Assembly (NCBI GenBank): GCA_963804955.1
Contig: CAWDSQ010000007.1
Coordinates: forward strand, 214,546-278,545
Direction of reading: 5' to 3'
DNA: 64,000 nt
From: an uncultured delta proteobacterium
Lineage (GTDB): Bacteria; Desulfobacterota; WTBG01; CAIYCZ01; CAIRTM01
The notes under the pieces were generated by a model that saw only the letters and a program-made list of their open reading frames with translations, was not told where the DNA came from and searched no databases. Each line of letters begins with the position of its first letter. Position 1 is the stretch's first letter. The position numbers and the translations under genes were made by a program. Shown piece after piece: positions 43,236 through 60,784 of the stretch.

Positions 43236-43319
43236 GGATTCTGATACATACTACCTGCTCAAGCACCCGCCTGCCGGGGGAGGGCTTTTGCCTGCTGTAC
43301 GAAGGGAGATTATACCGCT

Positions 43320-43796
43320 ATGCACCGTAAGATATTTAAAGCAATACTGAAAGCAATGCCGAAATCCGGCGGCACGGATACCGGCCGCAGCAGCAGTGCA
43401 GACAGAGAGCTGCAGATTGCAACCTGCGCGCTTCTTCTTGACATTGCTCATGCTGACAATGAGTTTTCACCGGAAGAGGAGCTGAAAATAGAGCAGCTTA
43501 TGCGCGGTCATTTCGCGCTGTCGGAAGAGGCTTTTCTTGAAATAAAAAAGCTCTCCGAGCAGAAGCTCAAAGGCAGCATCGACCTGTGGCAGTTTGCCAA
43601 AACAATAAAAGAGCAGTATTCCTACCGGCAAAAAGAGAAAATTATCGAGATGCTGTGGGCTGTTATTTACACTGACGACTCGCTGCATGCCCACGAAGAC
43701 TATCTTGTGCACAAGCTTGCAACAGTGCTCAACCTTGATCATGGAAAGCTGATTGACGCAAAGATGAAAATCCTCGGGCAAAGAAAGGCGGACTGA
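43320..43796 (+). CDS. TerB-like (tellurite-resistance TerB/DUF533-like) domain protein
   Basis: 158 aa helical protein; …EEELKIEQLMRGHFALSEEAF…IYTDDSLHAHEDYLVHKLATVLNL…. Confidence 0.55.
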   Translation: MHRKIFKAILKAMPKSGGTDTGRSSSADRELQIATCALLLDIAHADNEFSPEEELKIEQLMRGHFALSEEAFLEIKKLSEQKLKGSIDLWQFAKTIKEQYSYRQKEKIIEMLWAVIYTDDSLHAHEDYLVHKLATVLNLDHGKLIDAKMKILGQRKAD

Positions 43797-43930
43797 AACA
43801 GCAGGTATTGAAAGAGTTGCCCGCGAAAAAGCGGGACGTCACCCTGAATAGTTCCTGCAATACAGTTAATTCAGCAACGTTCCCTGGCTGCCCCTTGAAG
43901 TTATTGATATAGTTATGGGACGCACCCTGG

Positions 43931-44536
43931 TCATTCCCTGCCGTCATTCACCCTGTCTATATTCTGCCGCTGGCGTATTAAAAAATTGCTGCTCGGAGCC
44001 CCGGTGGATGGCGCTGGTGATGCATCCCCTGCAGCCCCCGCTTTATTGGGTGTTACTACAGCTTTTGTAACAGTGCTGCTATTTTGACCCGGCGGTTTCA
44101 GCTGTGGATCTGACCAAACCCCCAGTGAACGTTTTTGGGCCAGGCTTACAGACAAATCGTAGGGATGTTTTTTATTTTTCTCCAGTAACGGCCAGGCTAA
44201 CCCTTTCCGGACAAGCTCCCGGTTAATGGAATCCTGCTTTTTGGAAGAAAAAACTTCTGCGGTTATGATATTTTCTTGAGAACTGATCATAGTAATTCTG
44301 AGCATCTGGTTTAAAGCAAGACTTTCAAGATAGCGCTTTGCCTCAGCCCCGAATTTTTGTTGAGGCTCCGGAGCAATAATATATGCCAGCTGCACGGTAT
44401 ACTGTTTTCCATTTGCACGTATCAAGAGCGTGTCAGCATCTACCACCGTCTCGCAGACCGCATTAAAGTTCTCGGCAAAGGCCGGACAGGCCAGGAGCAT
44501 AATCCCTGCAATAAAGAAAAAATATTTTTTAAGCAT
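43931..44536 (-). CDS. secreted thermonuclease (SNase-like) family nuclease
   Basis: signal peptide MLKKYFFFIAGIMLLACPAFA; …VVDADTLLIRANGKQYTVQLAYIIAPE… SNase core. Confidence 0.6.
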   Translation of the reverse strand: MLKKYFFFIAGIMLLACPAFAENFNAVCETVVDADTLLIRANGKQYTVQLAYIIAPEPQQKFGAEAKRYLESLALNQMLRITMISSQENIITAEVFSSKKQDSINRELVRKGLAWPLLEKNKKHPYDLSVSLAQKRSLGVWSDPQLKPPGQNSSTVTKAVVTPNKAGAAGDASPAPSTGAPSSNFLIRQRQNIDRVNDGRE

Positions 44537-44634
44537 ACTAATCTCTCCCCTGGTAGTGTTCTTAATGTCGTCAGCACACCAGCGCCACAGGCTATGTTCC
44601 CTGAAAAAGGCAGCCAATCAAGCCACCCTCTATG

Positions 44635-44798
44635 AGATTGTGTCGCAATTAAAAAAAGATGTCATCTCGACCAAAGGGAGAGATCTTTGCCTGAAGCAAA
44701 AGCAAAGCCTTAAGATTGCTGCGCGGTGGCGCAACCTGCGGTCTCACCGCCTGCGGCGGATTCGAAATGACAGTACAAAACTAATTATGACACAGCCT
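44635..44798. mobile_element. MITE-like element copy C (164 bp; TIR agattgtgtcgcaat / attatgacacagcct; TSD CTATG)
   Basis: flanking CTATG direct repeats at 44630-44634 and 44799-44803. Confidence 0.7.
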
Positions 44799-45425
44799 CT
44801 ATGCTGGCGGTTGCTGCCTGCCTCCCCGCCACCGGCTCGAACCATCGCATGTCTCTTCTTGTTTAATAGGGTCAAAGTCAGGCTGCCGTCAAGGGCTTCA
44901 TTGATATTTTCGGCATTATTGCAATAAATCTGAATGAGTTTCCGGCCATTGCTGCTGTGGTTTTGAGTAAAGAAAGGCGGCCTGAAACAGGCATTCATTG
45001 ACAAAAAAAAACCGGCTGCAACAACCGCCGGCCAAAACACCTGAAAAACAGTGCTGTGGGGGTGTTGAAAAACCCCATTAAGTCATTCTGAGCGCAGCGA
45101 AGAATCTCTATCTTTTTGAATTTTCTAAGCCCGAATGGGACCTTCACTTTGCAGATGCGCTCCTGAAAACCATGGCTATCCCCTGTTTTCCTGTCCGCAA
45201 AAGCCGTCACCACCAAAAAAAATCATGAATAAAATTTTTTGCGTGCTATATAGAAATCTTAAGCAGCAATGCACGGGCACAAGATAGTGCGCTAAAGACA
45301 CTTCAGGGTCAGGAGTCTCGTCTGACCTCCGCCCCGCTGTGGAGCACAGAGTTTGTTGTAAATTTTTTATCATATCTACAAATAGAGTTAAATGAAGTTA
45401 AACGTATAAAGCAGAAGAGGGTTCT

Positions 45426-46457
45426 ATGCAGCTAATAAAATCAATATCCCTGCTGTCTGTGATCGGCTCTCTGTTTCTGTGCTCATCTGCCTTTGCCTAT
45501 CAATCGGGGAACTTTACGTACACGGTAACAAACCAAACGGTCACAATCACTGGCTATTCCGGTCCCGGCGGAGCAGTTGCAATTCCAGATACCATTACCA
45601 GCATGCCGGTAAGCGGCATCGGGGATAGTGCGTTTTATTGTCAAACCCGTATGACCGGTGTCACCATCCCGAACAGCGTTACGAGGATTGGAGCACAGGC
45701 GTTTCGAAACTGCACCGGTTTGACCAGCGTTAGCATACCGGGAAGCGTTACGAGCATTGGGACATATGCGTTTCAATTTTGCAGCGGCCTGACCAGCCTT
45801 ACCATACAAAATGGCGTTACGAGCATTGGCTACAGTGCGTTTGGAAATTGCACGGCCTTAATAAGCGTAACCATACCGGGCAGTGTGAGAAGCATTGCTG
45901 GTTCTGCGTTTTCATACTGCGACAGTTTGAGCGGTGCATATTTTTACGGAAATGCGCCGGCGATGGGGCCGAATGTTTTCCTTAACTGCGCAGGCGGTTT
46001 TACCGTTTACTATACTGCCGGAGCCACGGGGTTTACCAATCCGTGGTATGGCTATCCAACGGAGGAGTCTAACCCGCCTCCGTCAACCAGCACCACTGTG
46101 CCGGTAGCGACGACAGTGCCAGCAAGCACAACGACGAAGCCGTCCACGTCAACGACGTCCGCATCAACGAGTATAAGCACAACATCATCATCGGCTGCTT
46201 CATCAACAACTACTACTCCGCCGAAGTCCACCACAACCTCTGCACCGCCGAAGCCAACCACCTCCACTACCAGTGCCTGCAACGTATCAGGTGATACCGA
46301 TGGCGACGGTATGCCCGATACGCTCGATAACTGCCCGAATGGTTTCAATCCCAATCAGCTGGATGCGAATGGTAACGACATAGGAGATTGCTGCGACCCG
46401 GCACCCGGCTGCGGCGGCGACGGACAGGCAACATGTGATACGGTGTGCGGGCAGTAG
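45426..46457 (+). CDS. secreted surface protein: BspA-type leucine-rich repeats + Thr/Ser/Pro linker + thrombospondin type-3-like Ca-binding repeats
   Basis: repeats IPNSVTRIGAQAFRNCTGLTSVSIPGSVTSIG…; DTDGDGMPDTLDNCPNGFNPNQLDANGNDIGDCCD. Confidence 0.65.
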   Translation: MQLIKSISLLSVIGSLFLCSSAFAYQSGNFTYTVTNQTVTITGYSGPGGAVAIPDTITSMPVSGIGDSAFYCQTRMTGVTIPNSVTRIGAQAFRNCTGLTSVSIPGSVTSIGTYAFQFCSGLTSLTIQNGVTSIGYSAFGNCTALISVTIPGSVRSIAGSAFSYCDSLSGAYFYGNAPAMGPNVFLNCAGGFTVYYTAGATGFTNPWYGYPTEESNPPPSTSTTVPVATTVPASTTTKPSTSTTSASTSISTTSSSAASSTTTTPPKSTTTSAPPKPTTSTTSACNVSGDTDGDGMPDTLDNCPNGFNPNQLDANGNDIGDCCDPAPGCGGDGQATCDTVCGQ

Positions 46458-46584
46458 TCGGAGTATGGGGTAACGGATTAATCCTCTGAAGAATCATCAA
46501 GGCCCAACTACCAGAGATGGTGGTTGGGCCTTTTTTGTAAAAGTCCACAGGAGATGTCACTACAGTGATGCTCTGAGTCAATGC

Positions 46585-46770
46585 TATGACCGCAGCAAGG
46601 TTCAGTTTGCATCATCTGGGATTGCTAAGCGCAGGAAAATGCTGCAGTCGTATAAATCCCCGTGCCACACCGCAAGCTGGAGCGGGATACCGGAGGGAAG
46701 GCGATAGTTAAGGCAGATGGCGCAGGCCGGATAGTGATTTAATCATGGTCTTTATATGCTCTTGAGACCA
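46585..46770 (+). repeat. UmuC-like 3'-end remnant, copy 2 (KVQFASSGIAKRRKMLQSYKSPCHTASWSGIPEGRR*)
   Basis: see copy 1. Confidence 0.5.
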
Positions 46771-46870
46771 AGCCGTGCAAGAAGCTATTGTGTTAAACAG
46801 CCTCCCTTTTTCTCCCATCCCCTGCAGCCCTGAGGATGAGCCATGAGCAGAGCTGTGTGCGCCACCTCTG

Positions 46871-47278
46871 CTACAGCACCGCCTGCTGTTTATACAGCGC
46901 ATTGGGCAGGCACTGCATGGTCGCTTTGATCAGATCTTCCTGCTGGAAAGGTTTGCTCAGATATCCGTCAAACATGCCGCTTATCCGTTCCGTCACGTCA
47001 CCGGAGGCATGGCCGGTCATGACCAGCAGCGGAATGTTTTTAACAGCTTTATCAGTTTTCAAAATGACGACCGCCTCGTAGCCGTTCATCACCGGCATCT
47101 GTATGTCCAGCAGAATCAGGTCGGGCGCGCACGCGCGGGCCATATCAACAGCATCCCGGCCATTAGCTCCCTCGATCAGATCAAAGTCGTACTCATCGTA
47201 AAACAATTTGATCAGCTCACGGATATGCGCAGTGTCATCGACAATCAGTATGCGCGGCTTTCCAGACATTGCAGTCAT
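46871..47278 (-). CDS. single-domain response regulator (CheY-like receiver)
   Basis: …ILIVDD…D…LILLDIQMP…; 135 aa. Confidence 0.8.
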   Translation of the reverse strand: MTAMSGKPRILIVDDTAHIRELIKLFYDEYDFDLIEGANGRDAVDMARACAPDLILLDIQMPVMNGYEAVVILKTDKAVKNIPLLVMTGHASGDVTERISGMFDGYLSKPFQQEDLIKATMQCLPNALYKQQAVL

Positions 47279-47961
47279 AGCAGTCCCCTTCTTTCATTGG
47301 ATTAACTCTACAGAAGTACAACCCTGTCCTTCGTGCAAAAAAACCCCTTCCTGAAGCTGAAAAAAGGCCGGCTGTGACATACATTTTCACTACCGGCAGT
47401 CTCTGATTATTCAGCACCTGTGCTGTCTGCCGTTATGCCCTCATGCGCTCTTTTCGGTTGTCTGCGACGCTGCGTTTCTCTGCATGTTTTCAATACAGAG
47501 AGCACCTCCGGCCATAGAGAACAAAACATGTTTTATTCAATTTTTATTACATATACTGTGCCAACAACAATGCCGTCTTTGCTTGCAACTCCATTGACAA
47601 TAAAAAATTTAAAAATCATTCTAAATTAAATGATTTTTTTTGAAAAATATCTGGAAGGATTCTTTTTCAGTCCTGAGAAATGATGGCTAAAGCCGGCATC
47701 TATTCAAAATGAGTAATAATTGGCAAATAAAATTACTCATAATGAATACGACATGCTGCTGTAAAAAACCGTATCTCTCTCCATCAAAAAACAACAGTAC
47801 AAAACAGCCCCCCGAGATGTGAACTGAAAAGCCGGCCACGACAGGTCAGGCCGGAGGGCAGCCAGAGGCCCGATGGTTTACATACTGTTCCGGCAGGTGC
47901 AGGCGGCAACAAGGCAAGACCGGGGAGGGGCAAGGCTGCGAAAATTCCAAACTGCTAAGCT

Positions 47962-48324
47962 TTACTGGAACGCAAGGGATACTTCCGGATTTCTTTTAAC
48001 AAGCTGGCGGATCATGATGTCGCTTAATATACTCGTGAACTTTATGCCGCCTGTTACCTTATATGGGCTTTCCTTTACCCACATGACTTCGGCCTCAACA
48101 GGAATATGCAGGATCGTGTTTGGTATGGAAATTTCCATTACAAGAACAACTCCGCGCTTAATGCTTTCAGTCTGCGGAAAGTTTACAGTCGCACCGCTTG
48201 AGCTCAGATTTATAATCCGGCATTCATACTGCCGCGTGTCCTGTTCCCTGATGGAGCAGCGCGTTTTGAGGTTAACATCAAAACGAGCCTTGGCGCGCAT
48301 ATGTGCATATGAAGATTTTCCCAT
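47962..48324 (-). CDS. PilZ domain protein
   Basis: …ECRIINLSSSGATVNF…; paralog of 8084..8494. Confidence 0.6.
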   Translation of the reverse strand: MGKSSYAHMRAKARFDVNLKTRCSIREQDTRQYECRIINLSSSGATVNFPQTESIKRGVVLVMEISIPNTILHIPVEAEVMWVKESPYKVTGGIKFTSILSDIMIRQLVKRNPEVSLAFQ

Positions 48325-48913
48325 ATTTTAATTGTTCCTGTGCCGATTTTAAATTGTATGTAATAAAAAGTAAAAATGCAGACTAAAAGAGGTCTGCCCG
48401 GACAACATAGCCTGCTCTGTTTTTTATCCGACATCTGCCTGTGGGACGAAGAATAGAAAAAAACACCCCATAAAGCAATAGCACCAGAGGCTATTATTTA
48501 GGCACTAAGGGGCCTGAGGAGCGGGGGCAGAAAAAATATTGCCAATCATGTCTGTTGCGGGCCTGAACCGGTGCCTGCATTTCGGGCGAGACATTCCCGA
48601 ACCGGCATTACGAGATTTACAGCCCTTCGAATATTTTGAACAAAACGATAAAAAAGAGCGGCTGTGCGTGTCGTGCACATCCGCCCTGTATCATCTGACT
48701 CTTTTGATGCCGATTTAAAATACCTGCACCCGGTTTTCCACCTGCAAATGCGGCACCCGTTTGAACTCCTTTGCATTGCTGGCAACAGGCAACTACCGAC
48801 TTCTGAAATTTTATGTTTAGCCAGAAAGTCAAGAAACAATCAGCGGCTGTTGTCCCCCTATTGTTGTTCGCAGGCCTGATAGTAATTTATGTATGAACGT
48901 CCCCTGGTCAGCC

Positions 48914-49207
48914 CTATGCGCCAACTGCGGCACGCAGTTCTCCAACTTTTATTTTCTTCTGCCCGGCATGCCAGAGGTCGAGTTTTGACTGCATATACAA
49001 CCAGCTTTCCGGCGTGGTGCCTGTTGCAAGGGCGATTTTTACGGCCATGTCCGGTGTCACAGGACCCCTGCCGTTTAAAATTGCAGACAGTGTTTTACGC
49101 GACGTGCGCAAACGTTTTGCGGCTTCCGTTATCGTAAGTCCCAGGGGGACCAAAACATCCTCCCGTAAAACTTCTCCGGGATGTGTGGGTTTGCGTTTGT
49201 TAATCAT
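48914..49207 (-). CDS. higA: HigA antitoxin (HTH-XRE)
   Basis: …HPGEVLREDVL…LGLTITEAAKRLRTSRKTLSAILNGR…. Confidence 0.8.
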   Translation of the reverse strand: MINKRKPTHPGEVLREDVLVPLGLTITEAAKRLRTSRKTLSAILNGRGPVTPDMAVKIALATGTTPESWLYMQSKLDLWHAGQKKIKVGELRAAVGA

Positions 49208-49229
49208 GATGTGTGCTCCTTGAAAATAG

Positions 49230-49508
49230 TCAGTGATAATCCCTGTAATCGACGATCACAGCATCTGCCCCTTCAAATTGAAAAGTAACCCGCCAGTTGC
49301 CGTTTACCCGGACCGACCAGGAGTCCTTCTCTTTGCCCGGCAGCCGGTGCAGTTTAAAGCCGGGCAGATTCATGTCCTCGGGGCATGCTGATGCGTCCAG
49401 GCGGTCAAGTATGCGGGCCAGCCTGGGGGCATGGTCCGGCATTATTTTACTGCAGTCATCATGGTGGAAAAACTTTTCCAGCCCTTTATGCCTGAATGAT
49501 TTAATCAT
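49230..49508 (-). CDS. higB: HigB toxin (RelE/ParE superfamily, 'plasmid maintenance system killer')
   Basis: MIKSFRHKGLEKFF…; toxin-first order with higA. Confidence 0.8.
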   Translation of the reverse strand: MIKSFRHKGLEKFFHHDDCSKIMPDHAPRLARILDRLDASACPEDMNLPGFKLHRLPGKEKDSWSVRVNGNWRVTFQFEGADAVIVDYRDYH

Positions 49509-49751
49509 GTCTCCATATATAACATGTAACCTAATGCGTTACAAGCAGTTTTAGCAATTGCCAGTGTATGCTGCTGTTGGCATGCGGATCAGCATGAAAA
49601 CTGTGCATAGCGCGGATAGTAAAAACAAAGCGTGCTGACACCTGTTCTTGTTTTTTCGTTCTATGGTTTTCCCGATGGATGTTCCCGGTTGTTTTTTAGA
49701 CCCACTAAAATACAGGTTGCATAATATATAAAAACTTATATAATTGAAAAT

Positions 49752-50327
49752 ATGAATACTGTCGTGAAAGCACTTAAGTTCATTGGGTCGAGTCTGGACG
49801 ATCTACGGAATTTCCCGGATGAAGCCCGGCGGGCTGCCGGATTTGAGTTTCATGCGGTTCAAAGCGGTTTTGATCCAAACGACTGGAAGCCCATGCAGGC
49901 CATCGGCCCCGGCGTAAAAGAGATTCGTATTCATGTGCTGGGCGAGTGGCGCGTTATCTATGTAGCTTAGCCAACAACCACCCGCATAGAGCCTGTGTCG
50001 CAATTTACTTTGCTGTCATCTCGACCGAAGGGAGAGATCTTTGTAGTAAGTAAAATCAAGGGGCTTAAGATTTCTCACCGCCTGCGGCGGATTCGAAATG
50101 ACATTAATAAATCAATTGTGACACAGCCTCATAGCGGGGGGGGGATTTCGCTAAAGCGAAATCAAAAAACACATAGTGTTTATGTTGCCTTTTTCAGAAA
50201 CGCATGTTTCTGAAATCAGTTCAGCGACGCAGTTTATGTGCTGCACGCATTCAAGAAAAAAAGTCAAAAAACGAGCCGCCAGGATATCGAACTGGCGCGT
50301 CAAAGGTACAACCGCATTGGAGGTTAA
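49752..50327 (+). pseudogene. Gp49-like (PF05973, HigB-family) toxin gene interrupted by a 140-bp MITE; N-part 49752..49970, C-terminal end (…AVYVLHAFKKKSQKTSRQDIELARQRYNRIGG*) resumes at ~50220
   Basis: N-terminal ORF ends in-frame inside MITE; C-terminal conserved block found in-frame downstream of MITE, stop overlaps antitoxin start region. Confidence 0.7.
49990..50129. mobile_element. MITE-like element copy A (140 bp; TIR agcctgtgtcgcaat / attgtgacacagcct; TSD CATAG)
   Basis: CATAG at 49985-49989 and 50130-50134; 96% identical to copy B. Confidence 0.75.
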
Positions 50328-50331
50328 AGTA

Positions 50332-50616
50332 ATGAACGATGACATTATTAAATCTTCCGGCAGCGTTTTTGCTGATCTCGGTTTTCCACCGGATGAAGCC
50401 GCTATTCTTCAGATGCGTGCCGACCTTATGGCTGATCTGCGCAAACTCATCAAAGCGAAAAAATTAACGCAGGCCAAAGCGGCAACAATTTTCGGGGTGA
50501 CGCAGTCCAGGGTATCAGATCTCATGCGCGGCAAATGGGAGAGATTCAGTCTTGAAATGCTCATTACGCTTGCAACAAAGGCGGGCATGCATGTCAGCTT
50601 GAAAACAGCGGCATAA
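50332..50616 (+). CDS. HTH-XRE antitoxin partner of the Gp49-like toxin
   Basis: …LTQAKAATIFGVTQSRVSDLMRGK…. Confidence 0.7.
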   Translation: MNDDIIKSSGSVFADLGFPPDEAAILQMRADLMADLRKLIKAKKLTQAKAATIFGVTQSRVSDLMRGKWERFSLEMLITLATKAGMHVSLKTAA

Positions 50617-50654
50617 CGCTGGCTTCAAAACAAAGGGCGCTGACCCCTGTTCTT

Positions 50655-50900
50655 GTTTTTGCTGAGCGGAGAGGGAATTTATTAGATCAAAAAGCCATGA
50701 TGCAGGCAATAGATTCCCTGAATCAACGCTATGGCCGCAACACGGTTCAGTTTGCATCATCGGGCATAGATAAGCGCTGGAAAATGCTGCAGTCGCAAAA
50801 ATCGCCGTGCTTTACCACATGACGGGGCGAGATACCGGCTGTGAAGGCATGAGACAGACAGGCGGTGCAGGCCAGATAGTGATTTATGTATGAACGCCCC
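50655..50900 (+). repeat. UmuC-like 3'-end remnant, copy 3 (…AMMQAIDSLNQRYGRNTVQFASSGIDKRWKMLQSQKSPCFTT*RGEIPAVKA*)
   Basis: best-preserved copy; W codon replaced by TGA. Confidence 0.55.
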
Positions 50901-50995
50901 GCAGTCCTACTCAAACAATTCAACTAATTCAACAACGTTAAGTTCCTAAAAAATTTTCTTGAAAAGCATTAAATACAACCGTCCCCTTTTAGATG
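50880..50995 (+). repeat. 110-bp direct repeat, copy 1 (contains 21-bp core aattcaactaattcaacaacg)
   Basis: approx 90% identical to 55878..55990; core also at 54697-54717. Confidence 0.65.
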
Positions 50996-51057
50996 TTTAC
51001 AGCCAATTTCTGCAACCTGGGGGGGGGAGGGCGTTTGTGTACTTTGTAGGATGGCCC

Positions 51058-52229
51058 CTAAGTGCCGTCATTCTCAACAAGTGAATAGCTTGTGCTTCTG
51101 CCTCCTGCGGGATCCTTCTTCAGCAGGTTCTGTTTCACAAGGTCATCAATATCGCGACCGGCAGTATCCTGAGAACATTTTGTGATTTTTGCCCATTTTG
51201 ACGACGTGAGTTTTCCTTCGAATCCATCAATCAATAGATTGAGCATATGTCGTTGGCGATCGTTCAACGGCTGCTGCGCAAGTTTTTTCCAAAGAGTTGC
51301 TTTGCGGATGACATTTGCCAATATGGTCTCGGCGCCATCGAACGCTCGATTGAGGCAGCTCAGGAACCAATCGAGATATTCCGTGATATCAAGATCGCCT
51401 TTCTGCATTTCTTCCAGACGAGTCGTAGTATTTTCCCTGTTCTGCCTTTATCTGGGCAGAGATGCTGTAAAAGCGCTGAGCGCTGCGCTCTGAGCGAGCC
51501 AGCATCATGTCAGCGAGCGCGCGACCGATGCGACCGTTTCCATCGTCGAAGGGATGAATGGTCTCAAACCAAAGATGCGCTGTGGCGGCTTTAAGAATGG
51601 GATCGACATTGGGTTGCTCTGTATTAAACCACTTTATGAACGCACCCATTTCTTTATCGATACGCGTTGCGGCAGGCGCTTCGTAGTGAACATGTTCGCG
51701 TCCATAGGGGCCGGAAACAACCTGCATGGGCCCGGATTCAGCCGTTCGCCATTTGCCGACAGTAATCTTCAAAAGGCCGCTGTATCCTGTCGGGAACAAT
51801 GCTGCGTGCCAACCGAAGAGCCTCTCTTTTGTAATCGGTTTATCGTAGTTCTGTGTTGCATCGATGATCATTTGAACAACACCATCGACATTTCTGTCTG
51901 ACGGTGTCAGTGCGCCGATATCGACGCCAAGCCGCCGCGCGAGAGAAGAACGAACCTGATCCCGATTGAGCTGCTGCCCTTCAATTTCGCTGGATTTTAC
52001 GACTTCCTCCGTCAGGGTGTCGCAAAACGGCTTCGTCGCGCAGCTTGATGCCGAAAGCCTCTATGCGCCCAAAGAGCTGCCCTTGCCGATAACGTACAGC
52101 AGCGAGTTTTTGTGCAAGATGGTCGTTATCCCAACGAAAATGGGGCCAATCGGCTCTTTGATATATGTAGGTAGTCATAATCTCCGCACCTTTCGCGTAG
52201 ATTATAGCACTTTTTCTCCGCATAAGCAA
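51058..52229 (-). pseudogene. Fic/DOC family protein (DUF4172 N-domain + Fic HPFxxGNGR + C-terminal wHTH) split into three ORFs (51981..52229, 51389..51871, 51058..51408)
   Basis: …YIYQRADWPHFRWDNDHLA… (DUF4172), …HPFDDGNGRIGRA… Fic motif; overlapping frames. Confidence 0.75.
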
Positions 52230-52517
52230 TCATATTCGCCGCATATATTGCGGAGAATAAAGCGGCTAATCTCCGCAATTGATTGATCCTTGCTTTGGGC
52301 TGGGCAGACTAGAGATGAGGGTTGTTCAATACAAAGTTTGCCGCAGGAAGCACTTCCTGGGTGGGGGGATTTAGTAAGTGGTTGCCTGCTCTAACTCCCG
52401 CACGTTGTGCAAAATATGTATTCAGGAGCTGCGGAAAAGCTAAGTCAACAACGTCCCCCTAGTTAGACCTTTCTGCTCTATGTTAGTAGATGATAAAACC
52501 CTTTTTCAAATACCCCT

Positions 52518-53516
52518 TTACAGCCGGTTGCGACGTCTGGCTGAATGCCGATCCATGCGCGAATGTTCGTCATCCTGCTTCCTGCCTGCGGGCTTTGCAA
52601 AAGCTGCAAGGTGCAGTATGTGCCCCTGGTGCTCAAAGGCAAACCCGATCACCGAGTCCGATTCAAGCCGTATGTCTTCACCCTCAGATACGGATTTGCG
52701 ATGCTCTGCTGTTGCATCTGCCATGCCGGCGATAAACTGCCTTGCTGCGTCACCATGAGATCCTTCAAGCTTCAGATCAGGATCATACCAGTCCGTGGCA
52801 TCAAGGGCGTAGCTCTTCACAAGCTTTGCAAACACCTTCCCGAACGTGTCGGGTCCGGCAAAGCTGTCAAGGCCTGCAACTTTCCCGTTTATCAGAAATA
52901 CAGCACCGGCCTGATTTTCGGCCCTGGTAAAGTTTTGCAGGTAGTCTTCAAGGGAAATTCTGTCCTTTTCGTAAATTTCTGACATGGCCATGCTACCGGA
53001 TACGGCCTTCCTGCGCCGCGCCTTCTTGTCTATGGAATTCCATATCTCTCCCTGGTCAGAACAATAGGAGGCATTAATTTTGAGCGAGTGGTTTACGTGA
53101 ACGGCCTTCTCCGCCCTGATATTCGGACAGAGCAGGCGCTCATGGCTGAAAAACTTGCCGGAGGCGTAGGACCACCGGCCCTGTTCCACGCAGCTCACCG
53201 GGATTATCACCTTTGACATGGCAGCGATGAGAATGGTGGCGTTGACGATACGGTTCTGCTTGGCCCCTACCAGCTCTTCGCCGTCCAGGATGAGCACCTG
53301 CTTGCTTGCCTTATTGATCACCTGCAGCTCAGGCACTGAGCCTCCCGTGCTCACCTCTCCAACTTCGATGAGCCCGCCCTGCAGCGCCTCGTCAAGAAGC
53401 AGGTAGTCGGCCTGTTCCGTACCACTGGTCAAAAGCGGCACCATGCTCAAATTTTTATAGGCTTGAGCCGGCCCCGTGGTGATGGTTGTGATATAGGTTT
53501 TAAGACTTTCGTTCAT
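52518..53516 (-). CDS. hypothetical protein (332 aa), first gene of an operon divergent from the WYL regulator
   Basis: no recognisable motif by eye; intact long ORF. Confidence 0.5.
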   Translation of the reverse strand: MNESLKTYITTITTGPAQAYKNLSMVPLLTSGTEQADYLLLDEALQGGLIEVGEVSTGGSVPELQVINKASKQVLILDGEELVGAKQNRIVNATILIAAMSKVIIPVSCVEQGRWSYASGKFFSHERLLCPNIRAEKAVHVNHSLKINASYCSDQGEIWNSIDKKARRRKAVSGSMAMSEIYEKDRISLEDYLQNFTRAENQAGAVFLINGKVAGLDSFAGPDTFGKVFAKLVKSYALDATDWYDPDLKLEGSHGDAARQFIAGMADATAEHRKSVSEGEDIRLESDSVIGFAFEHQGHILHLAAFAKPAGRKQDDEHSRMDRHSARRRNRL

Positions 53517-53674
53517 GGCCTCTCCTTTGACTTTTCCGGTTAATCTTACCTTTAAGAATAGCAGGGCACTGTGTCAGGGAAGGTCAAAACGAATTAAAAA
53601 ATATTGTTATTTATTGTAAAAAATTGATATATTTTAATTTCATTGTGGTCTTTTTTTACGTCAGGGAGGATTTT

Positions 53675-54652
53675 ATGCCACGAGGAGATCAGCTGGCGCG
53701 TCAGTGGAAAATTATTCAGACCATAGTCTCGTCAAAAAAAGGCAAAACGGCAACCGAGCTGGCAACCGAACTCGAAGCAAACCCGCGAACCGTCTACCGC
53801 GACCTTCAGGCATTGCAGACAGCGGGGTTTCCGATATACACGGAAAGAGTGGGCGATAAAAATTGCTGGACACTGCTTGATGCCATTAAAAACCAGATCC
53901 CGGTCCCGTTCGCATTTACCGAGCTCATGGCTCTGTATTTTTCAACCGATATGCTCAAAGCCCTTCACAATACAATTTTTTATGAAAACCTGGACTCACT
54001 GGCTAAAAAAATAAAAACCATCCTGCCTCCCGAGTCGCACAGATTCCTTGAAAACGCGCGCAAGACTTTTTCTGTTCAGAAGAAGCACTATAAGGACTAC
54101 GGCGGCTTCAAAGAGATAATCAACAAGGCTTCAGATGCCGCGCTGAAGCAGAAATGCGTCACACTTGTCTACTGCTCCATGCCGGAGAAAAAAGAGACCC
54201 GGCGCACCGTAGATCCCTACCGCATCTGGTTTTTCAATGAGACCTTTTACCTGATCGGCTACTGCCACCTGCGCAAGGAGCTCCGCTCTTTTGTGCTCGA
54301 CCGGGTCAAATCCCTCACCGTTACTGATGAGGAGTTTGTCATCCCTGAAGATTTTGATTTTGATGCCCTGATGAAGGGCAGCTTCGGCGTTATCACCGGC
54401 CCGACTGAATCCGTGCGGATACAATTTGAGAAAGAAGTGGCCGGCTATATTGAAGAAAAGGTGTGGCACAGCAGCCAGCGCATTAACCGGGCCTCTGACG
54501 GGGCAATTATCTTTGAGGCCGACGTTGCAATAAATGAAGAATTTAAAAACTGGATTTTAAACTGGGGATCAAACGCGATGGTTCTGGCGCCCGCATCGCT
54601 TGTTGCGGAGATTCAGGCAGAGATCGCCAAAATGGCTAACAGGTATAGCTGA
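53675..54652 (+). CDS. WYL-domain transcriptional regulator (wHTH-WYL-WCX; BrxR/CapW/PafBC-like)
   Basis: N-terminal wHTH (…ATELATELEANPRTVYRDLQALQTAGFPI…), WYL core (…RTVDPYRIWFFNETFYLIGYCHLRKELRSFVLDRV…), C-terminal WCX. Confidence 0.8.
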   Translation: MPRGDQLARQWKIIQTIVSSKKGKTATELATELEANPRTVYRDLQALQTAGFPIYTERVGDKNCWTLLDAIKNQIPVPFAFTELMALYFSTDMLKALHNTIFYENLDSLAKKIKTILPPESHRFLENARKTFSVQKKHYKDYGGFKEIINKASDAALKQKCVTLVYCSMPEKKETRRTVDPYRIWFFNETFYLIGYCHLRKELRSFVLDRVKSLTVTDEEFVIPEDFDFDALMKGSFGVITGPTESVRIQFEKEVAGYIEEKVWHSSQRINRASDGAIIFEADVAINEEFKNWILNWGSNAMVLAPASLVAEIQAEIAKMANRYS

Positions 54653-54819
54653 TTTATGGATGGATGCCCCCAGGATATTTCCTGCAGCACAGATAATTCA
54701 ACTAATTCAACAACGCCCTTTATGCTCCCAATATGAAGCTAATAAAGAGGGGGATGCAGGTAACCCCTATTCCAAGTGGCCACGACTAGGGGGTTTTGGG
54801 TGGCCGCCGGGGTTTATTT

Positions 54820-55230
54820 TTAAATAATACTTAAAATCGGCTCAAGACGCGGGTCAATGGCTTTCAAAAGTTTGGAAAATTTATCCAGGGATGGCTTTAC
54901 TTTACCCTGTTCATATCTGCTGTAGGCAGCCGGTGAATTTGAACCAAGATTTTTCGCAACATCACGTACGCTCAAGTGAAGGCTGCTGCGTTGCTGTTTG
55001 AGCGCCAGGGCCATAAGCAGGGTGTCATTGCTGGAGCCCACCATGAAAGTATCTGCCGCCCCCTCTGTAACGGAAACAGTAAAGCCTTTTTCATCAATGA
55101 TTGATTCAATGGCATCCTTTGCCATAAAATAAGCATCTTTTCGGCTCTTTCCCTGAGTATAAATCTTCAGCAAGGGTATTTCTACTGCCCACCATTTACC
55201 TGACCGGACAAGTTTGCCTTCTATTTTCAT
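54820..55230 (-). CDS. hicB: HicB antitoxin (RNase-H-like N-domain + HTH-XRE)
   Basis: 136 aa; overlaps hicA by 4 nt. Confidence 0.85.
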   Translation of the reverse strand: MKIEGKLVRSGKWWAVEIPLLKIYTQGKSRKDAYFMAKDAIESIIDEKGFTVSVTEGAADTFMVGSSNDTLLMALALKQQRSSLHLSVRDVAKNLGSNSPAAYSRYEQGKVKPSLDKFSKLLKAIDPRLEPILSII

Positions 55231-55427
55231 GTGCTCTCCTTTCTCTTGTTACCCGGATTGGCCAGCGCTGTTTTTACGATGGCCTCAGCGGTATATTCAT
55301 TAATCTCTGTGTGCCGGGGCACCGGAATTTTCTGCTCTCCGTTTGTCCATTTCTCATGGCTGCCGCCCTCGCCGTATTTCCACCAGCCAAGTTCTTGCAA
55401 CCGCTTGATGAGAACTTTCTTTTTCAT
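55227..55427 (-). CDS. hicA: HicA mRNA-interferase toxin
   Basis: MKKKVLIKRLQELGWW…GGSHEKWTNG…. Confidence 0.85.
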   Translation of the reverse strand: MKKKVLIKRLQELGWWKYGEGGSHEKWTNGEQKIPVPRHTEINEYTAEAIVKTALANPGNKRKEST

Positions 55428-55597
55428 ATTTTATATTGTATACATATTTATATACATTGCAAGTGTAAATAAACCGCTTCATTTTATTAGTGGCTGTTGT
55501 CCCGGATAAATTCCGTGAAGTGTCTGTCAAACAGGGGTAAGTTCAGCTGTCCACGATTATTGCCTGAAAAACAAAACACCCTTTAATCCAGGATACA

Positions 55598-55826
55598 GTT
55601 TAAGAAAGAAGTGGCCGGCTATATTGAAGAAAAGGTGTGGCACAGCAGCCAGCGCATAACCCGGGCACCTGACGGGTCAATTATCTTTGAGGCCGACGTT
55701 GCAATAAATGAAGAATTTAAAAACTGGATTTTAAACTGGGGATCAAACGCGATGGTTCTTGCGCCCGCATCGCTTGTCTCGGAGATTCAGGCTGAGATCG
55801 CCAGAATGGCTGGAAGGTACAGCTGA
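55598..55826 (+). pseudogene. duplicated 3' fragment (last ~72 codons) of the WYL regulator gene, about 93% identical to 54433-54652
   Basis: MAGYIEEKVWHSSQRITRAPDGSIIFEADVAINEEFKNWILNWGSNAMVLAPASLVSEIQAEIARMAGRYS vs WYL C-terminus. Confidence 0.75.
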
Positions 55827-55877
55827 GGAGATTTGCTAGAAAACGAAACGGACTGAGCGATTTCAATTTGCTACAAT

Positions 55878-55990
55878 ATGAACGCCTCGCAGACCTACTC
55901 AAGCAATTCAACTAATTCAACAACGTTATGCTCCCTAAAAAATTTTCTTGAAAAGGATTAAATAGAACCGTCCCCTTTTACTTAAAGGAA
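55878..55990 (+). repeat. 110-bp direct repeat, copy 2
   Basis: tatgaacgcctcgcagacctactcaagcaattcaactaattcaacaacgtta…ccgtccccttttac. Confidence 0.65.
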
Positions 55991-56060
55991 CTATTGGCGA
56001 CAAATCCTTCGGCTTCCTGAGCGGCATCAAGCATGTGTTGAAGTCTTATTCTGTCATCAG
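55980..56060 (-). pseudogene. truncated HEPN (DUF86/HepT-like) toxin remnant (27 codons: [29 protein letters not shown])
   Basis: ATGA overlap with MNT stop; HepT-like N-terminus then premature stop at the repeat boundary. Confidence 0.45.
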
Positions 56061-56362
56061 GCCTCATACTGCACCTCGGCCGTACTCAGAATCTCTTTGC
56101 GAAAGTACCGGCTTAATTCCTGCGGGGTGCGAAGGTCGGCCTTGTTGCCGAGCAAATCGCTGAGTTCATTTTCCATATGGCAAAGAGAAAAAAAACCCGG
56201 CAGCATTTCATCGTAAAATTCAACCAGCAGATCAATATCGCTGTCCGGCCTCATCGCCCCTTTCAGGGCAGAGCCGAAAAGAGATAACCTTTTAATGCCA
56301 TTGCGCCGGCAGAATTCAATGAGCCGGTCACGCGAAATTCGCTGATCGATTATGTTCGACAT
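56057..56362 (-). CDS. MNT-type nucleotidyltransferase (MntA-like antitoxin of HEPN/MNT module)
   Basis: …[22 protein letters not shown]…. Confidence 0.8.
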
Positions 56363-56515
56363 ACATGCCTCGCCATTAATTTAGAGGGGTCCGGGTATCC
56401 ACCCCTGGCTAATCAGGGACTCCCTGTTTGCTGTTTATAGACCTCTGCTTTTATTTCACCGCAAAAATTCCGTTGTTGACACAGTGCACAAACTCCCCCT
56501 TTTTGCATGTGTATT

Positions 56516-57469
56516 TTACCCCAACTCCTTATATTCTGTCAGCCTTTTAAATCGCCACTCCAGCCCGTCCATGCGGGGATAATATTTTTTATCCCTCGGC
56601 AGGATGATGGGCTTTTTATCCAGATCGAGCAATTCCTGGTAATCGCGGTTGCGTTTGTCGAGAAGCTTTGAAACATGCCACTTCAAATCCGGGCCGGGGG
56701 AAAGGATGTTTTTGTCCAGCGCCCAGTGAAAGCTGGGGGCAAGGGCAATGCCGTTGCAGGGATCATTGTCGCGTGATTCGGAGAAGGGGATAATATGCGC
56801 GGCTTCAACCATGACCGACCCATCGGGCAGGATCACCCGCCAGCCCGAGGCGGCGCAGCGGTAGTCATATGCTTCGCGCACCACGCGTGAAAACGCCGCA
56901 TCGCGGACTTTGTCGTTGTAGGTGCTGCAACATTCAGCCACTTTTTCAGGTTCCTTCAGGCAGTTTTCATATACTGCTATCTGCTGCTCTTCGGCTACAA
57001 CGGTGCGGATCTGTTCGCGGCTTGCCGGGAACCACCGGTCTATGAGAGTTTGTCGCAAAATATCGCGATCCGGGGCAGAGGAGATCAGGCTGAACAGATC
57101 ATCATCAAGGAATGCATATTCAAAATTTTCCGTTATCTGCGATGGGCCGCGCACGGTTGACAGCGCTGCGACTACAGCCTCGCGGCCGGGAATCGGCTTG
57201 AGATGCCAGAAGGATTCCCCTTTGTATAGATGAAAAAATGGAAAATACGGATTGCAGGCATCGCCTGGCTGCTGCACTGTCTGGAAAAATGATTTAAAAA
57301 TATCAAGAAGGTTTTGGTTATAGAGGATTTTATTTTCTTTGAGAAACCCTGCCTCGGCCAGGGCCAGTACGGCCAGCAGCATGACCGGCTTGTGGGGGCT
57401 GACATGCTCCCCTGAACGGTTTACATGCAGCTTCGAGAAGGCGTGTATGTAGTATTCAAGATCAGGCAT
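56516..57469 (-). CDS. HNH endonuclease (HNH_2-like) with N-terminal helical domain; possible restriction-type nuclease
   Basis: …YRCAASGWRV…VEAAHIIPFSESRDNDPCNGIALAPSFHWALD… HNH motif. Confidence 0.6.
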   Translation of the reverse strand: MPDLEYYIHAFSKLHVNRSGEHVSPHKPVMLLAVLALAEAGFLKENKILYNQNLLDIFKSFFQTVQQPGDACNPYFPFFHLYKGESFWHLKPIPGREAVVAALSTVRGPSQITENFEYAFLDDDLFSLISSAPDRDILRQTLIDRWFPASREQIRTVVAEEQQIAVYENCLKEPEKVAECCSTYNDKVRDAAFSRVVREAYDYRCAASGWRVILPDGSVMVEAAHIIPFSESRDNDPCNGIALAPSFHWALDKNILSPGPDLKWHVSKLLDKRNRDYQELLDLDKKPIILPRDKKYYPRMDGLEWRFKRLTEYKELG

Positions 57470-57589
57470 GGCAGCTCATGTAATAATGAATATTATTGAA
57501 CTGTTCTTGTGAAGCAGGAAGAGTATAAAATAGAATAAAAGGCTAAAGCAACTACTCTTTTGTTATTTTTAAATAAATCAGTAAAATCT

Positions 57590-57765
57590 TTGCGAGCTGT
57601 GAGTTGGGAGTCGTGAGTTGGGAGTTGTGAGTTCGGAGTTCGGAGCGCAGGGGCACGGTGCACGTGCCGTAAAGTTCGGAGTTGGGAGTTGGGAGCGTAG
57701 GGGCACGGTGCGCGTGCCGTAAAGTTGGGAGTCGTGAGTTCGGAGTTCGGAGTAAAAATTCAGCA
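57590..57765 (+). ncRNA. candidate sRNA / tandem repeat: about 20 heptad units GAGTTSG(GAGT) carrying 10 GGA motifs, interrupted by two copies of a 30-nt palindromic unit (cgcaggggcacggtgcacgtgccgtaaagtt)
   Basis: tandem periodicity seen directly; GGA density resembles CsrA-sequestering sRNAs; strand and ends uncertain. Confidence 0.3.
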
Positions 57766-57803
57766 GCCGGGAGTCAGAAAAAACAGCCACCTCTCCCCCA
57801 TCA

Positions 57804-57942
57804 GAGACTGTGTCGCAATTAACTTTGCTGTCATCTCGACCGAAGGGAGAGATCTTTGTAGTAAGTAAAATCAAGGGCTTAAGATTTCTCACCGCCTGCG
57901 GCGGATTCGAAATGACATTAATAAATCAATTGTGACACAGCC
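57804..57942. mobile_element. MITE-like element copy B (139 bp; TIR agactgtgtcgcaat / attgtgacacagcct; TSD (A/C)TCAG)
   Basis: flanks atcag | ctcag. Confidence 0.75.
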
Positions 57943-58011
57943 TCTCAGTGGCGTAGGGGGAGAAAACCGGCAAGTTGGAAATTGCTGCACTACGGAGGCA
58001 GAAGATTGCTC

Positions 58012-58060
58012 ATTATGGCGGGGACGAATCCCGACTGCAATCGGGACGACCTTCGGCCTC
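58012..58060 (-). repeat. degenerate partial copy of tRNA-Asp 3' end (tggcggggacga…gaccttcggc)
   Basis: 12/12 then patchy identity with 58126-58165; plausible integration scar (att remnant). Confidence 0.4.
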
Positions 58061-58083
58061 AGGTTCTGCTCTTACCCTTAACT

Positions 58084-58118
58084 AAAAAAAGCACTTAACC
58101 GATGAGGCTAAGTGCTTG
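58084..58118 (-). terminator. intrinsic terminator of the tRNA-Val/tRNA-Asp transcription unit (aagcacttagcctcatcggttaagtgctt + T7 on minus strand)
   Basis: hairpin + U-run downstream of tRNA-Asp. Confidence 0.6.
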
Positions 58119-58125
58119 AAAAATG

Positions 58126-58202
58126 TGGCGGGGACGACGGGACTCGAACCCGCGACCTTCGGCGTGACAGGCCGACGTACTAACCAACTGTACTACGCCC
58201 CC
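58126..58202 (-). tRNA. tRNA-Asp (anticodon GTC), CCA encoded
   Basis: cloverleaf folded by hand: acceptor GGGGGCG/CGTCCCC(G-T wobble), anticodon loop CTGTCAC, T-loop GGTTCGAGTCC. Confidence 0.9.
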
Positions 58203-58229
58203 GCGTATCATATGCTGTTGTCAAATTTA

Positions 58230-58302
58230 TGGGCGATACTGGGTTCGAACCAGTGACCCTCGGCTTGTAAGGCCGATGCTCTCCCAGTTGAGCTAATCGC
58301 CC
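58230..58302 (-). tRNA. tRNA-Val (anticodon TAC)
   Basis: GGGCGATTAGCTCAACTGGGAGAGCATCGGCCTTACAAGCCGAGGGTCACTGGTTCGAACCCAGTATCGCCCA. Confidence 0.9.
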
Positions 58303-58380: not shown

Positions 58381-60784
58381 TTACTGCTGCACCGGCGGGA
58401 GGATAACTTTCTGCGGCGCCTTTTCCGCAAAAAACTGCTTTTCATCGACCGCCTGCCCGGCAAAGGCCTCGGCTGAGGCCGGCACCAGGGCAAGGCGGAT
58501 GACCTCATCCATATGATCGACCATGACGATTTTCAGGTCTTTGAGAATCTTCTCCGGGATATCCTTCAGGTCTTTTTCATTTTCCCGGGGAATAAGCACC
58601 GTGGAGATAAGGCCGCGGTTGGCGGCAAAAATTTTCTCTTTCAAGCCGCCGATCGGGAGCACCCGGCCGCGCAGCGTAATCTCGCCGGTCATGGCAATGT
58701 CCTTTTTGACCTCCACGCGGGTCAGGGCCGATATGATGGCGGTTGTGATGGCAATGCCGGCCGACGGCCCGTCCTTGGGTATGGCCCCCTCGGGCACATG
58801 TATATGCAGGTCGATGAGCTGATAAAAATCCTTTTCAAGGCCGAGCAGCTGCGCCCGCGAGCGCACATAGCTCATGGCCGCCTGTGCCGACTCCTTCATC
58901 ACATCTCCCAGCTTGCCCGTGATGATCAGATCGCCCTTGCCGGGCATGACCGCCACCTCTATGAACAGCAGCTCGCCGCCGACTTCGGTCCAGGCAAGGC
59001 CCGTCGAGATGCCCACCTTGTTCTTTTCTTCAGCAGTGCCGTAGCGGAACCGGGGAACGCCCAGATACTTCTCCACCGAGGTCTTATCAACTTTCACCTT
59101 CCGCTCTCCGGCCTCCTGCGCGCCCTGGCGGACAAGATCGGTTGCCACCTTGCGGCATATGGATGCCAGTTCCCGCTCAAGGTTGCGCACGCCCGCCTCC
59201 CGGGTATAGCGCCGGATGATATGCAGAACCGAATTATCGGAAAAGTCAAGCTGCTCGGCCTTCAGGCCGTTGGCCTCAAGCTGCTTGGGAACAAGGTACT
59301 GCTTGGCAATCGCGAGCTTCTCGCTTTCCATATAGCCGGCAATGCGGATGATCTCCATGCGGTCCTGCAGCGCCGGGGGTATGCCCTGCAGCGTATTGGC
59401 CGTTGTTATGAACATGACCCCGGAAAGATCATAGTCCATATCGATATAGTGATCATTGAAGGTGTCGTTCTGCTCGGGGTCCAGCACCTCCAGCAGCGCC
59501 GACGACGGGTCGCCGCGGAAGTCGGTGCTCATCTTATCGACCTCATCCAGCAGAAACACCGGGTTATCAGTGCCTGCTTTCTTGAGCGACTGCAGAATCT
59601 TGCCCGGCAGCGCCCCGATATAGGTGCGGCGATGCCCCCTGATTTCGGCCTCGTCGCGCACGCCCCCGAGGGACAGGCGCACAAACCGCCGGCCGGTCGC
59701 CCGGGCTATGGATTTCCCAAGCGATGTTTTCCCCACGCCCGGCGGCCCCACAAAGCAGAGTATGGGCCCTTTGAGCTTCTGCACCAGGCTTTCTACGGCC
59801 AGGTATTCCAGTATCCGCTCTTTGGGCTCTTTCAGGCCGTAGTGATCGTCGTTTAATATCTTTTCGGCAGGGCCTATGTCCATCTTCACCTCGGACTTTT
59901 CGCCCCAGGGCAGCGACAGAATCCACTCGATATAGTTGCGCACCACATTCAATCTCAGCAGACATGGGCGGCATCATCTTCAGCTTTTTGATCTCCTTTT
60001 CGACCCGGGTGCGGGCCTCCTCGGAAAGCTGCTTTTTGCTCTGCAGCTTCTCTTCCAGCTCATCAATTTCCGCCTGCCGGTCATCGGTATCGCCTATTTC
60101 CTTCTGAATGGCGCGCATCTGCTCGTTCAGGTAATAGTCCTTCTGGGTTTTCTCCATCTGCCGCTTGACGCGGGTCTTGATGCGCTGCTCGGTGCGAATG
60201 AGCTCCATGGCGCTTTCCATGATGGCATATACCCGCTCAAGCCGCTCGCACACATCGGTCAGCTCAAGAATCTGCTGTTTATCGGAAAGGCTTATGTTGA
60301 GCTGCGGCGCGATAAGATCGGCAAGCCGGGAGGGGTCATCAACGGTTGCAGCTGTTGCCACCAGATCAGAGGGTATGCGCTTGGTGAATTTGGCGAAATT
60401 ATCAAGAGACTCGAGAATCATGGCATTGAGCGCCTTGACCTCGTTTGCGTCCCGGCAGGTGTCATCAATTTCTTCGACAAGGGCTGAAAACGATTCATCC
60501 TCCACCAGAAATCTGGTGATGCGGCCGCGTTTTTTGCCCTCAACAAGCACCTTTATGCTGCCGTCGGGCAGCTTGAGCATCTGAAGAATCGTGGCCAGCA
60601 CGCCGACCGTATAGACGGTGTCCTGGCTGGGGCTGTCGATGGAGGCATCTTTCTGCGTCACCAGAAAAATGGTCTTGCCCTGCTCAAGGGCTTTTTCAAC
60701 AGCGGTGATGGAGCGCTCCCGCCCGACAAACAGCGGCGACACCATATGGGGAAAAACAACGATGTCCCGCAGGGGCATCATCAT
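58381..60784 (-). CDS. lon: ATP-dependent protease Lon, split by an indel near 59940-59960 (N-domain ORF 59567..60784, AAA+/protease ORF 58381..59952)
   Basis: …[12 protein letters not shown]| / [14 protein letters not shown]… junction; Walker [14 protein letters not shown]; protease Ser motif PKDGPSAG. Confidence 0.9.

Follow-up and report, generated by a model that had tools for sequence, protein, structure and literature searches.

Miniature inverted-repeat elements with IS1182-type ends in hairpin loops of a deltaproteobacterial genome

Among the insertion sequences (ISs) of the IS1182 family, IS1272 targets stem-loops, and some members of the family target palindromes (PMC5678879). IS1272 is reported to replace its target stem-loop and to leave no duplication behind; a pathway that duplicates the loop alone has been drawn as hypothetical for elements of this family (PMC5678879). 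Small hairpin repeats form a second system of relevance: the Ssn GIY-YIG nucleases bind and cut the NTS repeat of Neisseria, CGTCATTCCCGCGMAVGCGGGAATCYRG, and the wider SRM class in single-stranded form, as described in a paper that mentions neither IS1182 nor miniature inverted-repeat transposable elements, MITEs (PMC11893778). In this study we describe a MITE that is present in three intact copies (A, B and C) in a 64-kb stretch of DNA from an uncultured delta proteobacterium (contig CAWDSQ010000007.1; the whole stretch is called the window here). It has the same 17-bp ends and the same 3-bp duplication as ISs with IS1182-family transposases, it is inserted into stem-loops, and the hypothetical loop-only duplication matches its target sites. 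In contrast to IS1272, where the stem-loop is replaced, the stem is kept at the MITE sites and a loop of 3 nt is duplicated. The MITE further differs from IS1182 elements in having no transposase and in its interior, a pair of GTCAT hairpins, whereas the full-length ISs that we examined have no such hairpins. We consider it probable, at roughly 0.85, that the repeats are MITE copies mobilised in trans by an IS1182-family DDE transposase into hairpin loops with a 3-nt stagger.

The elements, their duplications and their target sites

A first-pass annotation of the window had proposed three clean copies of a MITE family, and these lie within 1 base of where it had placed them (Table 1). They are short, non-coding elements bounded by inverted repeats and by duplications of fixed length; their copies, A, B and C included, lie in unrelated flanks, and uninterrupted target sites were found as well, so the assignment to MITEs stands. 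A family profile built on 17 members (141 positions) and run over the window found copies A, B and C with E-values of 7e-40, 3e-40 and 2e-42, and it also recovered the degenerate relatives suspected at 6296-6640 and 40984-41160 (Table 1). Copies B and C agree at 139 of 141 positions (98.6%), while the closest match to copy C in other contigs reaches ~87% identity at most, which argues for a recent copying event in the lineage of the window.

Both ends of all three copies consist of a 17-bp terminal inverted repeat, GAGNCTGTGTCRCAATT, with the general form [G/C]AGNCTGTGTCRCAATT; the 15-bp repeats noted before are real but extend one base further on each side. Inwards from the first repeat follow ~9 nt, a module M, a spacer of ~25 nt, the reversed module M, ~11 nt and the second inverted repeat. 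Module M is made up of GTCATCTCGA, a small hairpin and GAGAGATCTT, and its reversed form of AAGATTTCTCA, a hairpin and ATTCGAAATGAC; the module sequences in the window are GTCATCTCGACCGAAGGGAGAGATCTT and GTCATTTCGAATCCGCCGCAGGCGGTGAGAAATCTT. The pattern GTCATYTCGA-N(2-32)-GAGARATCTT occurs seven times in the window and not once in 100 shuffles. The extra block of the long form that had been noticed earlier measures 24 nt and is present in copy A and in the copy at 6296-6470. Short spurious reading frames cross the window copies; those confined to the element are short (at most 34 aa, unscreened) and the longer overlapping ones continue into the flanks. No similarity to transposases was detected, and a promoter and terminator scan around copy B found nothing within the element.

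The three decayed relatives differ in what they have kept. In the copy at 6296-6470 the right inverted repeat is missing; the left one is still present, together with the 24-nt block and the two hairpin modules, the first of which has an enlarged inner hairpin. At 40984-41167 a single good inverted repeat (GAGCCTGTGTCGCAATT) is followed by unrelated sequence and then by a module pair with no second repeat. At both degenerate loci we observed that the motifs GGTTATCTCCAAWGCTGAAC and TTTCGTTCAGNNACTATATA bracket module pairs that have no normal ends. These motifs occur nowhere else in the fetched DNA; possibly they mark the ends of another family of small elements. Hairpins similar to the solitary one in Table 1 start at ~1130 and ~23602 on the minus strand. 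Directly beside copy C, at 57588-57772, lie tandem repeats of 14 nt and 50 nt (AGTTGGGAGTCGTGAGTTCGGAG...GGGGCACGGTGCACGTGCCGTAA).

Table 1. Repeat elements, hairpins and toxin-locus features (positions in the window)
Feature	Position	Strand	Form or content	Duplication or setting
MITE copy A	44634-44799	+	166 bp, long form	TAT at 44631-44633 and 44800-44802; intergenic, ~98 nt upstream of a staphylococcal-nuclease-like gene (43931-44536, minus strand)
MITE copy B	49989-50130	+	142 bp, short form	ATA at 49986-49988 and 50131-50133; nested in the first hairpin loop of a 106-nt insert within the toxin gene
MITE copy C	57804-57944	+	141 bp, short form	TCA at 57801-57803 and 57945-57947; between an HNH-protein gene and tRNA-Asp
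Truncated long-form copy	6296-6470	+	profile E = 7e-28, positions 1-127 of 141	
Divergent module-pair unit	6524-6642	-	one degenerate end (CTGTGTCGTAATT); profile E = 5e-20	
Degenerate relative	40984-41167	+	profile E = 3e-5	
Bracketing motifs	6473-6492 and 6658-6677; 41009-41028 and 41176-41195			
Solitary GTCAT-type hairpin	45082-45109	+	GTCATTCTGAGCGCAGCGAAGAATCTCT	
Uninterrupted paralogue of the copy A target	8754-8786	+	AATCAAGTCACCCTC TAT GCTGGCGTCTGCTG	single TAT
Toxin, N-terminal block (Gp49/HigB-like)	49752-49970	+	72 codons; PF05973 positions 1-58 of 90	
Insert in toxin gene	49967-50217	+	251 nt: 19 nt, ATA, MITE copy B, ATA, 84 nt	
Toxin, C-terminal block	50218-50327	+	..FSDAVYVLHAFKKKSQKTSRQDIELARQRYNRIGG*	in frame with the N-terminal block
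Antitoxin gene (HTH_37/XRE-type), intact	50332-50616	+	94 aa	90% nucleotide identity to contig L150

Relatives of the element were sought in two collections. When metagenomes were scanned with a 25-mer taken from the right module, 31 contigs were found, which carry long (~165 bp) and short (~140 bp) forms ~70-92% identical to the window copies; most of the full-length matches are 80-90% identical. Several of these contigs bear the sample identifiers Ga0194125-7, a series shared with the deltaproteobacterial bin L033. The uncultured host of the window belongs to the Thermodesulfobacteriota; its GroEL shares 91-94% identity with proteins from bins named Deltaproteobacteria or Desulfobacterota. 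A scan for AGNCTGTGTCRCAATT over one genome per species gave at least 118 loci (numbered L001-L118), and among those listed are 39 complete small elements with paired ends.

These sets allow the length of the target-site duplication to be determined. If the element is taken to begin and end as [G/C]AG...CT[C/G], a 3-bp duplication is perfect in 21 of the 39 complete elements listed; the 5-bp duplication assumed by the annotation, with the element beginning at AG, is perfect in 3 of the same 39 and has to be replaced by the 3-bp one. For the window copies and their closest metagenome relatives the 3-bp duplication is perfect in 11 of 17, and in the pooled set in 25 of 47 complete elements. Copy C is perfect under the 3-bp reading only (TCA/TCA as against ATCAG/CTCAG), whereas the length is ambiguous for copies A and B, since C...G closes their target loops. 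The 25 perfect duplications comprise 19 different triplets, and this rules out a TA or TNA target rule. A Tn3-like miniature element, with a 5-bp duplication and ends of ~38 bp starting GGGG, was also considered and rejected, given the count of 3 in 39 for 5 bp and ends of 17 bp that start GAG or CAG.

The elements are inserted into hairpin loops, with the 3 bp duplicated. Left flanks are rich in C and right flanks in G, and the 10-nt flanks are mutually complementary at 5.26 of 10 positions, compared with 3.60 +/- 0.23 for shuffled partners (maximum 4.30 in 1000 shuffles). Typical flanks read cattccggc GCA [element] GCA ggccggaat. Five reconstructed target sites are GTCAT hairpins that span the junction, and several elements sit in the loop of a hairpin of the GTC-arm type. 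Uninterrupted versions of the sites exist as well. The sequence at 8754-8786 reads AATCAAGTCACCCTC TAT GCTGGCG and equals the joined flanks of copy A, and the metagenome contig L122 (929-953, CAACAACCACCCGC ATA GCGGG) matches the joined flanks of copy B exactly over 22 nt. These two sites, and that of contig L150 at the toxin locus described below, are paralogous or homologous to the occupied ones, not allelic.

Two further contigs were tried as empty sites and set aside. Contig L123 is orthologous to 4153-5384 of the window; a copy lies shortly downstream of this region in L123 but not in the window, and the intergenic sequence is too diverged for an empty site to be called. Contig L159 comes from a related species (82-95% nucleotide identity, syntenic to 19.1-35.8 kb of the window); at L159:21226-21469 it has a GTCAT module pair with no canonical ends (21249-21376), whereas the window has 88 unrelated nt (19021-19108), and the comparison is not clean.

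Insertion sequences with the same ends

The end sequence also bounds complete ISs, all of them in other organisms. In a bin of Aminicenantes, L084:4008-5710 is a 1.7-kb IS with the ends CAGACTGTGTCGCAATT...GAATGCGACACAGTCTG and the duplication ATT. Its single protein of 488 aa scores 396 bits on NF033551, the model of IS1182 transposases (cut-off 270 bits), and falls below the IS5 and IS4 cut-offs. Two homologues of this protein could be traced to contigs, one within elements of 1709 bp flanked by AAT (L151-154) and one within elements of 1651 bp flanked by ATT (L155-156), and their transposases are above the IS1182 cut-off too. An IS1182-type reading frame comes after the end in two further loci, L034 (Nanoarchaeota) and L030 (Melioribacter). 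Across L084, L151-157, L034 and L030 the scores on NF033551 range from 295 to 396 bits. The duplication of the ISs has the same length as that of the MITE, 3 bp, and the sequence GAGACTGTGTCGCAATT is expected to bound cognate IS1182-family copies. At L084:3990-4010 the left flank of the 1.7-kb element is the right end of another copy (GCCGACACAGTCTG ATT CAGACTG...), so that two elements appear to have used the same ATT. The matching IS copies lie mostly on contigs of ~2 kb, and these repeats therefore probably cause contig breaks in environmental assemblies.

The MITE is most probably moved by such an enzyme: an IS1182-family DDE transposase, with its gene at another place in the genome, would bind the 17-bp ends and excise or copy the element. 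Integration would take place by a 3-nt staggered cut in the loop of an extruded hairpin or cruciform, and repair would convert the stagger into the 3-bp duplication of the loop. We infer that mobilisation occurs in trans in this host, that it is current and that structure rather than sequence is recognised. The MITE sites would then be natural examples of a loop-duplicating, structure-directed insertion that had previously only been proposed for IS1182-family elements, and a set of widespread small repeats would be tied to a defined transposase family.

Several points weigh against this scenario. As the annotation had already remarked for the window, no cognate transposase is visible in these 64 kb, and none is found in the 31 closest metagenome contigs either. 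The ISs with complete ends start with CAG and lie in GTCATT-like sites, while the window copies start with GAG and lie in hairpin loops; the sole example of the GAG type (L030) is cut by the end of its contig, and the exact partner of this subfamily is not among the ISs found. Moreover, the similarity between MITE and ISs is confined to the ~17-19 terminal bases. At the three window sites no clean presence/absence difference between strains was obtained, and about half of the complete elements have no perfect duplication, which decay fits but does not prove.

A different transposase family with a 3-bp duplication might have mobilised the MITE instead, for example IS5, the IS1182-type ends being either convergent or in use in other lineages only. 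The IS1031 group of IS5 makes 3-bp duplications, has ends starting GAG and encodes a DDE transposase, and IS1182 is related to IS5. The duplication and the GAG ends of the MITE are thus typical of the IS1031 group too, the IS1182-type proteins match IS5 models weakly (93 bits, cut-off 140), and the partner is not seen in the host lineage. However, all transposases found beside the end sequence (L084, L151-157 and L034) pass the IS1182 cut-off and fail those of IS5 and IS4, and the duplications follow no TNA rule. We therefore regard mobilisation by an element of the IS5 type as improbable.

Distribution, internal hairpins and other possible origins

The 17-bp end is found in small elements of at least ten phyla. 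Among the matches listed, small elements with paired ends lie in bins labelled Smithella, Syntrophales, Desulfobacterales, Binatia, Nitrospirota and Scalinduaceae, and also in bins of Pirellulales, Saprospiraceae, Atribacter, Aminicenantes, Elusimicrobiota and SAR324. By our own estimate the 16-mer pattern would match ~2,200 times by chance in the 596-Gb collection, and some of the 118 listed loci must be chance matches. Yet GTCAT lies within 60 nt inside the end in 54 of 117 matches listed (46%, background 5.5%) and within 30 nt outside it in 23 of 117 (background 2.8%), and this enrichment indicates that a large fraction of the listed loci is not due to chance. A literature search returned nothing relevant on the end sequence, nor on IS1182 together with a MITE. 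The family had been called new, which holds insofar as its end sequence was not found in the literature; it belongs, however, to a superfamily present in many phyla. The MITE itself is of the ordinary, IS-derived kind, in a very widespread family for which we found no published description.

Some of the elements contain little beyond the two inverted repeats. Such mini-elements of 65-87 bp were observed at L054:3232-3296, L112:3968-4054 and L094 (~3020-3108), the last of them in the loop of an NTS-like hairpin (gtcattcccgcgcagg|...|cgaaagcgggaatccag).

Across phyla the end is followed by versions of a single hairpin type that are specific to the lineage; examples among the matches listed are GTCATTCCGG..CCGGAATCCAG, GTCATCCCGG.., GTCATGCCGG.. 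and GTCATTGCGAGG... The fetched loci contain 94 hairpins built of GTC, a 7-nt arm and a complementary arm, with 34 different arms, and the tail is CCAG (= CYRG) in 48 of the 94. Directly after the end, L085, L011 and L116 match the 28-nt NTS consensus, which is that of Neisseria, with 0, 1 and 2 mismatches. What these hairpins have in common with NTS, dRS3 and SRM repeats is the succession of GTC, an arm starting with AT, a loop, a complementary arm and a short tail. The modules of the window (GTCATYTCGA..GAGARATCTT) have GTC and complementary arms, but differ in ending with CTTW; the layout with a CYRG tail is met in their relatives. The published SRM pattern has no match in the window and is weakly enriched in loci L001-L118 (21 matches, 7 after shuffling). 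When the window and the loci were scanned with a crude GIY-YIG motif, no Ssn-like gene (GIY-YIG, cd10448) was detected, a profile search of all frames not having been made.

From this likeness in sequence, the relation of the modules to NTS and SRM repeats can be taken as a lead. It might be possible, although we hold it to be rather doubtful in its full extent, that the window MITE is one branch of a pan-bacterial superfamily in which IS1182-type ends carry NTS/SRM hairpins as cargo and prefer the loops, or the GTCATT foot, of similar hairpins. In that case such repeats would multiply and nest in the genomes of many phyla by way of IS1182 transposition, a route so far unrecognised, and transposon and nuclease would be functionally linked. 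This lead is what could be of importance outside the present genome, as it offers a testable account of how the hairpin repeats that Ssn recognises came to expand.

The same hairpins could point to another origin, namely palindromes of the REP/BIME or NTS type spread by a Y1 enzyme or an Ssn-like GIY-YIG enzyme, the inverted repeats being the outer arms of the palindrome. The MITE resembles REP/BIME (RAYT) and IS200/IS605-type elements in being a short, abundant, extragenic hairpin repeat that occurs clustered and nested. Its interior consists of GTCAT hairpins with the architecture of NTS repeats (PMC11893778). Module pairs with no canonical ends do exist, at 6524-6642 and 41040-41170 in the window and at L159:21249-21376. 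Nevertheless, the 3-bp duplications are clear, the 17-bp end is identical to that of ISs encoding a DDE transposase, and the motif scan of window and loci, crude as it was, revealed no reading frame with a GIY-YIG motif. REP and IS200/IS605-type elements are not known to have terminal inverted repeats or target duplications, whereas the MITE has both. Hence we give this origin very little credence.

A single strand of the element is predicted to fold as one long hairpin (-23.7 kcal/mol and z = -3.6 for copy B, z = -3.3 for copy A). In the Rfam search only tRNA-Asp and tRNA-Val of the window are above threshold, and the best hit in the 351 nt around copy B (49900-50250) has E = 1.1 and 16 bits against a cut-off of 75 bits. 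That the repeats are structured small-RNA genes conserved in place, which the strong fold and the common strand of all three window copies might suggest and which the annotation had named as an alternative that would overturn it, is hardly credible in view of the missing Rfam family, the unrelated flanks, the duplications and uninterrupted sites, the copy within a broken gene, and a palindrome that folds equally on both strands, as expected of inverted repeats in DNA.

The broken toxin gene and its surroundings

The annotation had placed copy A inside a toxin gene and had credited the MITE with its inactivation. It is copy B that lies there; copy A is intergenic. Judged by its reading frames, the toxin gene is broken and that of the antitoxin is complete. 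Intact homologues of the toxin, of 104-109 aa and with identities of up to 94%, have ...EWRVIYVAKFSDAVYVLHAF... at the position of the break. In contig L150 the toxin-antitoxin pair is intact (87-93% nucleotide identity), and the break site has 2 nt there as against 251 in the window; the net gain of 249 nt preserves the reading frame. In this respect the earlier description holds: the N- and C-terminal blocks are in frame with each other and the antitoxin is intact.

The MITE and one duplication account for 145 of the 251 nt. The other 106 nt (49967-49988 and 50131-50217; 19 nt, ATA and 84 nt) form three small hairpins, the first of which holds copy B in its loop. Apart from this first hairpin, which is also present in L122, the 106-nt sequence is found nowhere else in the window or the fetched loci. 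The N-terminal block ends at a TAG (49968-49970) that was created by the insert and is located in the 106-nt part, outside the MITE. Since the truncating stop lies in this part, and the 106 nt are separate from the MITE, the break cannot be credited to the MITE. Its position between two in-frame toxin blocks would be compatible with inactivation by the MITE insertion itself; this is unlikely considering the separate hairpin-rich 106 nt with their stop codon and the occurrence of the MITE-holding hairpin in uninterrupted form elsewhere (L122). Copy B would rather have landed in a hairpin of a sequence that was already interrupting the toxin gene or did so simultaneously.

All three intact copies are found in a stretch of low GC content (~0.46-0.50, compared with ~0.55 elsewhere). 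This stretch (43000-58300) is rich in toxin-antitoxin and defence-type genes, among them HigB/HigA, the broken Gp49/XRE pair, Fic/DOC, a WYL regulator, an MqsA-like antitoxin, an ARPP-1 protein and the HNH protein, and the genes for tRNA-Asp and tRNA-Val mark its end. Its appearance is that of a genomic island, or of integrated elements stacked on one another. For the host genome the finding is a routine one: it accounts for several repeats, for a single decayed toxin gene and for some variation between genes in this low-GC island near tRNA genes.

Some further features of the window were observed. Three decayed copies of one short frame (MMQAIDSLNQRYGRNTVQFASSGIDKRWKMLQSQKSPCFTT) lie at 43058-43150, 46567-46674 and 50697-50819, each followed by shared repeats (families D1, D9, D12, D13 and D17). 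The peptide bears a putative resemblance to the C-terminal end of a UmuC-type polymerase, and the pattern could be due to integrations that recurred at the 3' end of a single gene. The lon gene (58381-60784, minus strand) is split into two overlapping frames that cover profile positions 2-293 and 293-795, which suggests a frameshift or an indel error of long-read assembly; fragmented transporter genes were observed in the related contig L159 too. A 44-nt repeat (CCCCTTAGCAAAGGGGGCTAGGGGGATTTGTCAGGCTGCAAAAA, 89% identical) that is unrelated to the MITE occurs at 924-967 and 21458-21501.

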